Shown here: positions 33,233 to 45,365 of the stretch, piece after piece | Layout of the letters: each line of letters begins with the position of its first letter | How positions within the stretch are numbered: position 1 is the stretch's first letter | NCBI GenBank assembly: GCA_964590645.1 | Contig: CAZPYJ010000021.1 | Coordinates: forward strand, 5,121 to 69,120 | Direction: 5' to 3' | Source: an uncultured Lentimicrobiaceae bacterium | GTDB taxonomy: Bacteria; Bacteroidota; Bacteroidia; Bacteroidales; JAGNHN01 | DNA length: 64,000 nt | The notes under the pieces: model-generated | What the model was told of the DNA's origin: nothing | Databases searched by the model: none | Seen by the model: the letters and a program-made list of their open reading frames with translations, nothing else | Made by a program: the position numbers and the translations under genes

Positions 33233-33706
33233 TCAGTTATATGCCAGACAAACCTCAAAGACCCCTGTAAAATGTTTTCTCAACTGCGCTCCTATCATCA
33301 CGGGGGAAGCCTGAACAGCAAAAGAATAGGAGCCATCATTATTGATCACAACATTCTGCTCCCGGCTGGTGGTAAAGCCTGTAACTACAATAACATCTTC
33401 TCCGGAATAGGCATTTACCGAAGTGGGAAGGCTCAGGAAACATACCGCAGCCGGACGTGCGGACAGCTCAAAACCGGCAGCGCACATTTCCAAATCCTGC
33501 AGGCTGAGGGCATCAGATTTACTGCCTCCTTTCCTCTCCCAGATCAGATCTGCCGTTTTTCCTATACTTAATGGCTCCAGGATACAGGCCGAGGCGAAAG
33601 CTGAAGTCTTCTTCATAGTTCGATGCTCCGTCGCTTGTCCAATTACCTTGAGGGGAACCCCAAAGTGAAAGAGGAGGTAAACGAGAATGATGAAGGTGTT
33701 TCTCAC
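33233..33706 (-). CDS. DUF4402-type secreted protein (divergent putative fimbrial subunit)
   Basis: GTG start gives signal peptide MRNTFIILVYLLFHFGVPLKVIGQ. C-terminus ...GVFEVCLAYN parallels the ...FDVIVAYN of the paralogs; ~157 aa. Confidence 0.75.
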   Translation of the reverse strand: MRNTFIILVYLLFHFGVPLKVIGQATEHRTMKKTSAFASACILEPLSIGKTADLIWERKGGSKSDALSLQDLEMCAAGFELSARPAAVCFLSLPTSVNAYSGEDVIVVTGFTTSREQNVVINNDGSYSFAVQASPVMIGAQLRKHFTGVFEVCLAYN

Positions 33707-33928
33707 GGATTTGCCTGACTAAGAATGCGGCCTCTGTCAAGCACCATACCAAAGCAAATCTCTTATTGTATATGCTTGGTTTTCTGATATTTAAAAGGGG
33801 ATGGGCAATAAAGAAAAATGCCCCTTCTCCGTCAATATCGGAGAGAAAGGCCTTCAGAATCGTAGAGGAAAAAATAAGGAGCCGCCTCCTGAGAAACGAC
33901 CCCTGACAATGCAATGGCTTTTTGGTAA

Positions 33929-34227
33929 TCAATTATAGGCTACTGCAACATCAAAAGTCCCGGAATAGAGGCCCTGGTTTTGTTTGGCACTGACCATCAA
34001 ACTGGCCCCGATATGCAAGGTAGCAACTCCCTGTGCATCCAGGCTGGATGTAGTCCCAAGGCTGCTCACAAAGTCCTTTACCACCATACTTTTATTACCT
34101 GAACGATGCGGGCCAAACTTGTGGCACTGCTGCTGGCTGAGGCACTCCCGCTTCCCAAGGCCCAAAGACTTTCCGTAGCGAGGACTGAGATGAGAAAGAT
34201 GAGGATGAATAGAAGTGGATGTTTCAT
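33929..34227 (-). pseudogene. decayed DUF4402 subunit gene (internal deletion plus frameshift)
   Basis: One frame (34227-34078) encodes a signal peptide and start of the mature protein, MKHPLLFILIFLISVLA..ASASSSATSLARIVQ, then stops. A different frame (to 33929) encodes only the C-terminal third, SGNKSMVVKDFVSSLGTTSSL..GLYSGTFDVAVAYN. About 85 central codons present in the intact paralog are missing. Confidence 0.6.
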
Positions 34228-34254
34228 TGTGGTTTAAATACGTGGACATTCATT

Positions 34255-34288
34255 TTAACAAGAAGGCGCTACCCCGAAGGGTGGCGCC
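34255..34288 (-). terminator. rho-independent terminator after major subunit copy 1
   Basis: GC-rich 10-bp stem (34265-34288) with a tetraloop, followed on the minus strand by TTCTTGTT. Confidence 0.6.
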
Positions 34289-34311
34289 CGATTTCAGAAG
34301 TTATGTTGATT

Positions 34312-34833
34312 TTAGTTGTAAGCAACAATCACATCGAAGGTACTGCTGTAAAGGCCGGGAGCCTGGTTGGCTTCCACGTTCAGGGTGGCACCTACTACGA
34401 GAGTGGCTGTTCCCTGATTGCTCAGGCTGCTGGTAGCGCCCAGGCTGCTGACGAAGTTATCCACTTCCATTTCATCGTTGCCAGACTCAATGTCGATGGA
34501 GCTCGGCAGATCGATGGTGAAAGAAGCACCGGGATAACCCTGGATGTCGAAGCTGGCGGCACTGTTTACATTGCCGGCAGCGATCAGGGTAACGCCACCC
34601 ATACCGGAACGGCTTCCGTCGAGGGCGATGCTTACACTTCCGTCGGCGATGCCGGCAGCAATGTTCCCGAAGGCCAGGTCAGCCTGTTTTACGATTTCCA
34701 GGGGCTGCACGATCCGGGCGGTAGCGGTGGCGGTTCCGGTAGCGGAAGCGGTGACAACCACAGTGGCCATTACATTGTTTCCGAGGAAGAAAGCAGCGAG
34801 GAGGCTGGCAAAAACGATCAGATTCTTTTTCAT
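34312..34833 (-). CDS. DUF4402-type putative major fimbrial subunit, copy 1
   Basis: 173 aa. Signal peptide MKKNLIVFASLLAAFFLGNNVMA. Mature N-terminus TVVVTASATGTATATARIVQPLEI alternates small-hydrophobic and Thr residues. C-terminus GLYSSTFDVIVAYN. Confidence 0.85.
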   Translation of the reverse strand: MKKNLIVFASLLAAFFLGNNVMATVVVTASATGTATATARIVQPLEIVKQADLAFGNIAAGIADGSVSIALDGSRSGMGGVTLIAAGNVNSAASFDIQGYPGASFTIDLPSSIDIESGNDEMEVDNFVSSLGATSSLSNQGTATLVVGATLNVEANQAPGLYSSTFDVIVAYN

Positions 34834-34880
34834 TGTTTTGTGTTTTTTAGGGTTAGTGTTTGTGTTGATGCCAAACCCTT

Positions 34881-34896
34881 TTCAATGCCCGTGCCA
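34881..34896 (-). promoter_or_regulatory. sigma-54-type -24/-12 promoter candidate for major subunit copy 1
   Basis: The minus strand reads TGGCACGGGCATTGAA against consensus TGGCACG-N4-TTGCW. That is 11 of 12 defined positions, with -12 GC replaced by GA. It lies ~47 nt upstream of the ATG. No TAnnTTTG box is present. A sigma-54 activator gene is adjacent. Confidence 0.55.
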
Positions 34897-44572: not shown

Positions 44573-44632
44573 AGATTACTCATCAGCAGAGCCTATGAAC
44601 TCAGCTTAGTTTCTACTCAGGTTTGAACAGAC

Positions 44633-44661
44633 GAAAAAGAGCCACCCCGCGGGGTGGCTCT
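44633..44661 (-). terminator. rho-independent terminator after major subunit copy 2
   Basis: Stem AGAGCCACCCC/GGGGTGGCTCT followed on the minus strand by TTTTT. Confidence 0.75.
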
Positions 44662-44685
44662 GGAACTGCTGAAGTGCTCTTGATC

Positions 44686-45207
44686 TTAGTTGTAGGCAAC
44701 AACCACATCGAAGGTACCGCTGTAGAGGCCGGGAGCCTGGTTGGCTTCCACGTTCAGGGTGGCACCTACCACCAGGGTAGCAGTTCCCTGGTTGCTCAGG
44801 CTGTTGGTAGCGCCCAGGCTGCTGACGAAGTTATCCACTTCCATTTCATCGTTGCCAGACTCAATGTCGATGGAGCTCGGCAGATCGATGGTGAAAGAAG
44901 CACCGGGATAACCCTGGATGTCGAAGCTGGCGGCACTGTTTACATTGCCGGCAGCGATCAGGGTAACGCCACCCATACCGGAACGGCTTCCGTCGAGGGC
45001 GATGCTTACACTTCCGTCGGCGATGCCGGCAGCAATGTTCCCGAAGGCCAGGTCAGCCTGTTTTACGATTTCCAGGGGCTGCACGATCCGGGCGGTAGCG
45101 GTGGCGGTTCCGGTAGCGGAAGCGGTGACAACCACAGTGGCCATTACATTGTTTCCGAGGAAGAAAGCAGCGAGGAGGCTGGCAAAAACGATCAGATTCT
45201 TTTTCAT
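44686..45207 (-). CDS. DUF4402-type putative major fimbrial subunit, copy 2
   Basis: 173 aa, differing from copy 1 at 3 residues, all in the last 40 aa (S>N, S>G, I>V). Confidence 0.85.
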   Translation of the reverse strand: MKKNLIVFASLLAAFFLGNNVMATVVVTASATGTATATARIVQPLEIVKQADLAFGNIAAGIADGSVSIALDGSRSGMGGVTLIAAGNVNSAASFDIQGYPGASFTIDLPSSIDIESGNDEMEVDNFVSSLGATNSLSNQGTATLVVGATLNVEANQAPGLYSGTFDVVVAYN

Positions 45208-45254
45208 TGTTTTGTGTTTTTTAGGGTTAGTGTTTGTGTTGATGCCAAACCCTT

Positions 45255-45270
45255 TTCAATGCCCGTGCCA
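45255..45270 (-). promoter_or_regulatory. sigma-54-type -24/-12 promoter candidate for major subunit copy 2
   Basis: Identical TGGCACGGGCATTGAA element. Confidence 0.55.
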
Positions 45271-45314
45271 GAAGGTGGCACGCACACATAAAACAATGAT
45301 ATTCAAGTATTAAA

Positions 45315-45365
45315 GGGAATTCGCCTTTTGGCACAGCTCAGCGTTTTGTCCCGGATTCGGACAAA
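45315..45365 (-). promoter_or_regulatory. conserved upstream sites of copy 2
   Basis: GGGAATTCGCCTTTTGGCACAG at 45315-45336 and a perfect inverted repeat TTTGTCC-N7-GGACAAA at 45345-45365. Confidence 0.45.

Follow-up and report, generated by a model that had tools for sequence, protein, structure and literature searches.

The 64,000-nt stretch of contig CAZPYJ010000021.1 analysed here (the whole of it is called the window) comes from an uncultured Lentimicrobiaceae bacterium of the phylum Bacteroidota and contains, at positions 33,233 to 45,365, a block of genes that likely specifies an adhesive surface fibre: a very divergent chaperone-usher machine that would assemble subunits of the DUF4402 family, with a sigma-54 phosphorelay as its switch. 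The gene content of the block, the distant resemblance of chaperone, usher and subunits alike, in profile comparisons, to archaic chaperone-usher systems and the conservation of promoter motifs were established directly, and the folds of usher and chaperone were established at the level of predicted models. We conclude that the locus is a genuine, coherent and deeply divergent variant of the chaperone-usher pathway, and that, of the known classes, it is closest to the archaic one.

A preliminary description of this DNA, made from the sequence alone, likened the N-terminus of one signal-peptide protein of the block to PapD-type pilus chaperones. The AlphaFold2 model of this 271-aa protein (predicted local distance difference test score, pLDDT, 87.5) consists of two beta-sandwich (Ig-like) domains, and a Foldseek search of the PDB with the model returned CsuC as the best match (E 5e-10), followed by YadV, CfaA, Caf1M, CupB2, PapD, DraB, EcpB, FaeE and SafB. 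The matches, CsuC, YadV, CfaA, Caf1M and PapD among them, span E-values from 5e-10 to 1e-6 and are nearly all pilus chaperones, in agreement with the PapD-type reading. The Pfam model PapD_N scores 19.9 bits with the window protein, under its cut-off of 23, and is found at E <0.01 in 24 of 26 relatives. Names given by NCBI or JGI to some of the 2593 homologues include 'fimbria/pilus periplasmic chaperone' and 'P pilus assembly chaperone PapD', and the pilus-chaperone identity of this protein is already present in some public annotations, including RefSeq proteobacterial records. Invariant in the family are R30, with which the first strand begins, and basic residues of the strand at positions 116–127; from the PapD literature, we take these to be the sites at which pilus chaperones hold the subunit C-terminus.

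The 854-aa protein encoded further downstream had been put forward as an outer-membrane candidate in the usher position, and its predicted structure bears this out. In the AlphaFold2 model (mean pLDDT 81.8), an N-terminal domain (residues 37–155) is followed by six strands (194–287), a six-strand beta-sandwich inserted after strand 6 (296–364), eighteen further strands (375–642) and two C-terminal beta-sandwich domains (660–852). As modelled, this layout is that of ushers, in which a plug-like domain interrupts a 24-strand barrel after strand 6. When the model was compared with the PDB using Foldseek, the best 18 matches were all FimD or PapC (E 1e-25 to 2e-12, with template modelling scores of 0.41–0.61 when normalised to the target) and the following match had an E-value of 1.9e-8; in E-value, over 4 orders of magnitude lie between ushers and all other barrels. 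It had been fixed beforehand that the 854-aa protein should be a plugged beta-barrel and the 271-aa protein a two-Ig-domain chaperone, and the models show a barrel with an inserted plug-like domain and a protein of two Ig-like domains, respectively.

By sequence, the 854-aa protein stands outside the known usher family, and its likeness to ushers is confined to the fold. Among the matches listed, none of the usher homologues carries the Pfam Usher family. More than 1100 homologues are present in the protein database, and those with names are called hypothetical, SPOR-domain or carboxypeptidase-regulatory-like proteins; the RefSeq label in proteobacterial records is 'carboxypeptidase-like regulatory domain-containing protein'. 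NCBIfam gave no match for the chaperone, the usher or the subunits. PDB sequence searches with profiles of the chaperone, usher and subunit families retrieved no pilus protein.

The C-terminal region of many usher homologues contains peptidoglycan-binding SPOR domains (for example, residues 932–1003 of homologue P0033), and in Pseudoalteromonas the locus is flanked by separate SPOR-domain genes (locus L108, 3410–3895 and 8712–9350). The window usher is without a SPOR domain. These domains suggest that the machine may be anchored to the cell wall.

Three proteins of the block match Pfam DUF4402 (PF14352): two of 173 aa, encoded on the minus strand at 34312–34833 (110.5 bits) and 44686–45207 (113.8 bits), and one of 176 aa, encoded on the plus strand at 41470–42000 (60.6 bits). 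The 157-aa product of 33233–33706 on the minus strand scores 21.6 bits, under the Pfam cut-off, and was recognised by a family profile built here (A3, E 2.2e-13, 45.8 bits); it begins with a hydrophobic segment, and this divergent paralogue is possibly a minor subunit. A further paralogue had been described as decayed, and the family profile reveals both a frameshift and an internal deletion. The C-terminal part of the domain (profile positions 114–170) is found in one frame of the ORF (open reading frame) at 33929–34249, where Pfam also recognises DUF4402, the signal peptide and N-terminal stretch (profile positions 1–44) lie in a different frame at 34081–34233, and profile positions 45–113 are deleted. 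The ending AYN, which the preliminary description had noted as common to the three minus-strand proteins at the left end, can be seen in the translations and is also that of the second 173-aa copy.

Just 3 residues distinguish the two 173-aa copies, and the DNA of these putative pilin genes shows no difference over a stretch that begins ∼85 nt before the ATG and runs to about codon 134, a pattern suggestive of gene conversion. A hairpin 3' of each copy is preserved through compensatory changes. Metagenome contigs from the same organism end at the duplicated pilin gene, as would be expected from a genuine repeat. The subunits have a Sec-type signal peptide that is not followed by a lipobox Cys, and ∼20 residues rich in Ser, Thr and Ala separate the cleavage site from the start of the Pfam domain. 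In 21 of 21 aligned members of the DUF4402 family, the C-terminus lies exactly one residue past a near-invariant Tyr. Elsewhere in the family, which comprises 11,113 clusters at 50% identity, some proteins of ∼300 aa (P0330, P0335, P0337 and others) contain two tandem domains and might act as adhesins with two domains or as subunits that complement themselves.

In order to place the three components among known systems, their profiles were aligned using hhalign with reference profiles made from annotated records (nine SCPU or CsuA/B pilins and five each of the archaic chaperones and ushers) and with classical profiles made from the Fim, Yad and Sfm proteins of Escherichia coli K-12. The chaperone aligned with archaic chaperones at a probability of 92.8% (score 53.8, 190 columns; nulls ≤16.7) and with classical chaperones at 44.9% (score 35.6), archaic and classical chaperones themselves giving 96.9% (score 73.8). 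For the usher, the alignment with archaic ushers had a probability of 41.7% and a score of 46.0 over 510 colinear columns (nulls ≤24.7), compared with 2.0% and 29.8 for classical ushers. Since archaic and classical ushers reach 99.9% and 270.9 with each other, the window usher is, by profile score, far outside the span that divides the recognised classes and more remote from archaic and classical ushers than these are from each other.

The DUF4402 profile built from 21 sequences aligned with SCPU pilins at 85.2% (score 41.7); the alignment is colinear, comprises 133 columns and extends from the mature N-terminus as far as the final residue. A reversed SCPU profile gave 0.6% (score 16.6), and 40 column-shuffled SCPU profiles gave at most 2.1% and a score of at most 20.2. 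The score of 41.7 is comparable to that between SCPU and classical pilins (90.5%, score 45.6, 165 columns), and DUF4402 aligned with classical pilins at 7.9% (score 24.6, 40 columns). With an alignment of 69 sequences, the probability for SCPU was 58.7% (∼90% in global mode; score 34.3, 33 columns), and with first-sequence match states in local hhalign it was 5% only. Because the 85% result needs a 50%-gap rule for match columns, we treat the DUF4402–SCPU homology as moderate. A single CsuA/B or Caf1 sequence aligned with DUF4402 in the last strand only (1% and 4.6%, respectively), and an exhaustive search of representatives with DUF4402 found close relatives in all of its best 150 matches and no bridge to other pilin families. 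Pfam SCPU (PF05229) was not matched at E up to 1 in any of 21 DUF4402 members, so the subunits are not members of PF05229. Taken as a whole, the profile data indicate that the DUF4402 subunits are probably remote relatives of archaic pilins.

The preliminary description had held that content and order of the block match an archaic operon of the Csu or sigma type. The comparison of components agrees with the first part of this claim at the level of remote similarity; the second part fails, since the gene order is unlike that of Csu. The locus combines a chaperone, an usher and small secreted subunits, as do the Csu pili (Acinetobacter baumannii) and CupE (Pseudomonas aeruginosa). For its chaperone, the top structural match is CsuC and the top profile match is with archaic chaperones. 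The end-to-end alignment of the subunits with CsuA/B-type SCPU pilins includes an LxFG motif and the C-terminal GxYxxT..VTVxY strand, and the CsuD-type ushers are those with which the window usher is colinear. However, Csu and CupE subunits belong to PF05229 and those of the locus to PF14352, and archaic ushers score 46 against the window usher yet 271 against classical ushers. In the window, the chaperone, minor subunit and usher genes follow one another, and the major pilins are separate, duplicated single-gene units on the opposite strand that carry sigma-54-type elements, unlike in Csu and CupE. A CsuE-like tip adhesin is absent from the locus. Archaic systems have been placed in Proteobacteria, Cyanobacteria and Deinococcus-Thermus, not in Bacteroidota (PMC4654587).

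With the type 1 (FimC/FimD) and P (PapD/PapC) pili the locus has in common the usher fold, for which FimD and PapC are the best Foldseek matches, and the two-Ig-domain chaperone fold, whereas profile similarity to the classical systems is near background for usher and subunits and weak for the chaperone. The type V pili (FimA/Mfa) share the host phylum, Bacteroidota. They polymerise by strand exchange, as the subunits of the locus may also do, and to our knowledge their pilins are lipoproteins and use neither a chaperone nor an usher. In contrast, the signal peptides of the proteins encoded here are of the ordinary kind, with no lipobox Cys, and chaperone and usher genes are present. None of these proteins matches the FimA/Mfa Pfam families, and a type V pilus was rejected on these grounds; a reading as type IX secretion cargo was rejected after the Pfam and NCBIfam scans.

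A scan of species-representative genomes for relatives of the usher gave at least 503 confirmed cases, and the best 80 of these were used for locus comparisons. They are nearly all labelled as Bacteroidales, Flavobacteriales, Saprospirales or Fluviicola. Across the 80 loci the conserved order is subunit(s), chaperone, subunit, usher, and the same order is found in Proteobacteria. The chaperone-subunit-usher set, at higher GC, is present in Polaromonas sp. JS666 (plasmid 2), Novosphingobium, Sphingopyxis and Pseudoalteromonas, with plasmids among the carriers. The system is therefore not restricted to Bacteroidota, as the three-gene set also occurs in Alpha-, Beta- and Gammaproteobacteria. On plasmid 2 of Polaromonas sp. 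JS666 (locus L107, 61160–75760), which is conjugative, the cassette lies between two IS6 transposase genes and next to a LuxR-type regulator, indicating that the cassette can be mobile and that its regulation varies among lineages.

The major-pilin gene and its promoter have been duplicated as a unit elsewhere too, with three copies in locus L004 and two each in L007 and L010, beside the two copies and the pseudogene of the window; the copies often flank the assembly operon. In locus L018 (4791–9392), the chaperone gene and the minor-subunit/usher pair are separated by a gene for a 1533-aa protein that contains Gly_rich_2 and GEVED domains. Many Bacteroidales loci have a ∼5 kb gap at the same position; the 1533-aa protein is absent from the window. 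It could serve as a large adhesin at the tip or as cargo.

The ORF coordinates of every gene in the preliminary description were reproduced, and all of these genes were found in our ORF list. The block lies between nadD and dut, as had been described: a cytidylyltransferase-like NadD-type gene (32583–33173) and a dUTPase gene (45653–46099) were identified at its flanks. Its features are, from left to right:

33233–33706, minus strand: divergent DUF4402 paralogue, 157 aa, with signal peptide and AYN ending (Pfam and family profile A3)
33929–34249, minus strand: decayed DUF4402 pseudogene with internal deletion and frameshift (family profile)
34265–34288, minus strand: GC-rich hairpin, a likely terminator, 3' of pilin copy 1
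34312–34833, minus strand: putative major DUF4402 subunit, copy 1, 173 aa (Pfam, signal peptide, CsuA/B-type profile alignment)
34882–34896, minus strand: sigma-54-type -24/-12 element TGGCACGGGCATTGA, conserved in related loci
34973–34989, no strand assigned: palindrome TGTCC-N7-GGACA, candidate activator site, ∼93 nt upstream of the -24 element
35288–38905, plus strand: cytoplasmic hybrid histidine kinase (three to four PAS, GAF, HisKA, HATPase, two REC)
38902–39264, plus strand: Hpt phosphotransfer protein (Pfam Hpt E 4.6e-10, HSIKG motif)
39264–40652, plus strand: NtrC-type sigma-54 activator (REC, AAA+ with GAFTGA, HTH)
40654–41469, plus strand: predicted periplasmic two-Ig-domain pilus chaperone, 271 aa (AlphaFold2, Foldseek, hhalign)
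41470–42000, plus strand: putative minor DUF4402 subunit, 176 aa (Pfam 60.6 bits, conserved position between chaperone and usher)
42008–44572, plus strand: predicted outer-membrane usher, 854 aa (AlphaFold2, Foldseek, hhalign)
44638–44661, minus strand: terminator-like hairpin 3' of pilin copy 2
44686–45207, minus strand: putative major DUF4402 subunit, copy 2, 173 aa (differs from copy 1 by 3 substitutions)
45256–45270, minus strand: sigma-54-type -24/-12 element, the same as at copy 1
45345–45365, no strand assigned: palindrome TTTGTCC-N7-GGACAAA, ∼95 nt upstream of the -24 element

The GC content of the block (0.47–0.54) does not depart from that of the rest of the window; recent horizontal transfer was considered, and GC content shows no trace of it. 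An Rfam scan of the window gave no match. Between pilin copy 2 and dut, at 45458–45606, lie ∼17 tandem copies of an 8–9 bp unit, CTGACCTT(A). This array was found once in the window and has an equal copy number in an independent metagenome contig (L081, 10968–11116).

The regulatory genes were as the preliminary description had portrayed them. The hybrid kinase contains three to four PAS domains, a GAF domain, HisKA, HATPase and two REC domains, and is without a hydrophobic segment that could span the membrane (maximum 19-residue Kyte-Doolittle mean, 1.22). The genes for the kinase and the Hpt protein overlap by 4 nt, and the Hpt protein has the HSIKG motif and a Pfam Hpt match. The activator has the architecture REC-Sigma54_activat-HTH (helix-turn-helix), with an intact GAFTGA motif at residue 222, and only 2 nt separate its stop codon from the chaperone start. 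In at least 28 of the 80 loci an activator gene adjoins the locus, either directly 5' of the chaperone gene, as in the window, or directly 3' of the usher gene on the opposite strand.

The element TGGCACGGGCATTGA (TGGCAC-N5-TTGA) precedes both major-pilin copies, and 63 nt lie between its -24 end and the ATG. In the related loci L001–L017, which provided 19 major-type subunit genes from 9 genomes, 13 of these genes have TGGCAC-N5-TTGN between -110 and -30, 0.008 being expected per interval searched, and no such element was found 5' of minor-subunit, chaperone, usher, activator or kinase genes. With a looser motif in more distant loci, 8 of 40 major-type genes were positive compared with 0 of 44 minor-type genes. 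Since the kinase operon and the chaperone gene of the window are likewise without an upstream -24/-12 element, the assembly genes themselves are apparently not sigma-54 dependent.

A palindrome, TGTCC-N7-GGACA, is found ∼95 nt upstream of the -24 element at both window copies, its arms kept and its spacer and surroundings diverged. In L004 (three pilin copies) and L007 (two) a palindrome of the form GTCCC-N5-GGGAC occurs at the same distance from the element, and the activators of these loci are the closest orthologues of the window activator (∼600 bits). The palindrome is absent from L001, L010 and L012, where the activator reaches ∼250 bits only. We regard TGTCC-N7-GGACA as a candidate activator binding site. 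With a -24/-12 element and a palindrome at both major-pilin genes, recurring in relatives, the predicted sigma-54 link of the locus is stronger than the preliminary description, which had tied the genes to a sigma-54 phosphorelay from their content, could see. In the literature searched, we found no report of chaperone-usher fimbriae controlled by sigma-54 or an enhancer-binding protein.

Other potential control elements were observed in the same regions. An TATATTTG sequence at 35171–35178, ∼110 nt upstream of the kinase start, is presumably a promoter box of the Bacteroidota -7 type, and a sigma-70-like match in the 3' end of the activator gene (40501–40529), ∼125 nt before the chaperone start, could be an internal promoter. 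A second TGGCAC-containing element lies 55–70 nt upstream of the -24 element in L004, L006, L007 and L010. Its window counterpart, TTTTGGCACAG (34953–34962, plus strand), is on the opposite strand at both pilin copies, faces the kinase operon at copy 1 and is not followed by a -12 box. Finally, the -24 element is part of a perfect inverted repeat, CGTGCCA-N5-TGGCACG, at both copies (34886–34904 and 45260–45278), a repeat that could be a second protein-binding site or due to chance.

The circuit resembles the control of type IV pilin by PilS/PilR and RpoN. In Pseudomonas and Myxococcus, a two-component signal passes to an NtrC-type activator that acts at a sigma-54 promoter directly 5' of the major pilin gene, and the logic from activator to pilin promoter would be the same here. 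The pilus type is different, however, a soluble hybrid kinase and a separate Hpt protein would make this a four-step relay, and the regulators are encoded in one operon with the assembly machinery.

From the folds and the workings of known chaperone-usher systems, we propose that DUF4402 proteins are exported via the Sec system, captured in the periplasm by the 271-aa chaperone and handed over to the usher, which would polymerise the subunits and thread them outward, presumably by donor-strand exchange through the Ser/Thr/Ala-rich N-terminal stretch. The 173-aa protein, encoded by two near-identical single-gene copies, would be the major subunit of the surface filament, and the 176-aa protein, always encoded between chaperone and usher, a minor subunit, perhaps initiator or tip. 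Gene order and DNA motifs lead us to propose for regulation that the assembly genes are co-transcribed with those for the kinase, Hpt protein and activator from a housekeeping promoter. An intracellular signal at the PAS/GAF kinase would start a His-Asp-His-Asp relay, via receiver and Hpt protein, to the activator, which would then bind TGTCC-N7-GGACA and open the sigma-54 promoter in front of each major-pilin gene. With sigma-54 control at the pilin genes only, the machinery would be kept ready and fibre output gated by pilin transcription.

Several results weigh against a sigma-54-switched chaperone-usher fibre. The 854-aa protein did not match Pfam Usher (PF00577) at E up to 0.1, a profile of 28 usher homologues retrieved no usher from PDB sequences, and the hhalign probability for archaic ushers is just 41.7%. 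The DUF4402–SCPU probability falls to 58.7% with the larger alignment and varies with settings, and the -12 box is TTGA where the consensus is TTGC. The lack of any usher or pilin match in Pfam, NCBIfam and PDB sequence searches, and the carboxypeptidase-like RefSeq name of the usher, would also agree with there being no chaperone-usher system at all, the block encoding an unrelated plugged transporter, a generic periplasmic Ig-domain protein and soluble secreted or periplasmic DUF4402 proteins. We regard this as very improbable, considering the gap in Foldseek E-value between ushers and other barrels, a strand count and an insertion point of the extra domain as in ushers, structural matches of the chaperone that are nearly all pilus chaperones, and colinear, above-null profile matches to archaic counterparts for all three components.

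Alternatively, the same machinery could make a capsule- or sheet-like coat, as in the F1 (Caf1) capsule of Yersinia or spore coat protein U of Myxococcus, instead of a discrete pilus. The subunit termini are Caf1-like at the motif level (TATATLVEP... and ...GKYTDAVTVTVSNQ), with an hhalign E-value of 0.0088 for the final 36 residues, no gene for a two-domain tip adhesin was found in the window, and two copies of the major subunit suggest a very high output. This seems unlikely to us, as the Caf1 resemblance, with a probability of 4.6% and BLASTP E >5, is not significant beyond the motif level, the chaperone and subunit profiles are closer to Csu-type pili than to Caf1, and a conserved minor subunit between chaperone and usher is reminiscent of tipped pili. 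As to the switch, the phosphorelay and activator might be mere neighbours with other targets, the -24/-12 elements of the pilin genes being served by another activator or non-functional. The TTGA box would fit this, as would several relatives whose kinase is non-adjacent or whose activator is encoded at the opposite side of the locus, and the lower frequency of the motif in more distant Bacteroidales loci (8/40). We hold it to be quite improbable, because the activator and chaperone genes are nearly contiguous and their adjacency recurs among the loci, the palindrome tracks activator orthology, being present at ∼600 bits and absent at ∼250 bits, and motif enrichment is strong only 5' of major-type subunit genes.

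Beyond the window, we think it reasonably probable that DUF4402 pili form a further deep branch of the chaperone-usher pathway, present in at least ∼500 species-representative genomes, nearly all labelled as Bacteroidota, and also in Proteobacteria, with one branch of the Bacteroidota under a dedicated sigma-54 phosphorelay that would gate transcription of the duplicated major-pilin genes. DUF4402 (PF14352) is not mentioned in the literature searched, and targeted searches found no description of a DUF4402 chaperone-usher system. If correct, this would give a function to the large and unstudied DUF4402 family and extend chaperone-usher assembly to the Bacteroidota, which are not credited with such pili and for which discussion has been limited to type V pili and type IX secretion; genome surveys that use the Pfam Usher model would overlook the whole branch. 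Cultured carriers include Polaromonas sp. JS666 and Pseudoalteromonas xiamenensis, and Fluviicola taffensis, Tangfeifania diversioriginum and Anaerorudis cellulosivorans are further candidates by record label. Kinase, Hpt protein, activator, palindrome, sigma-54 promoter and pilin would together form one compact circuit that is directly testable.

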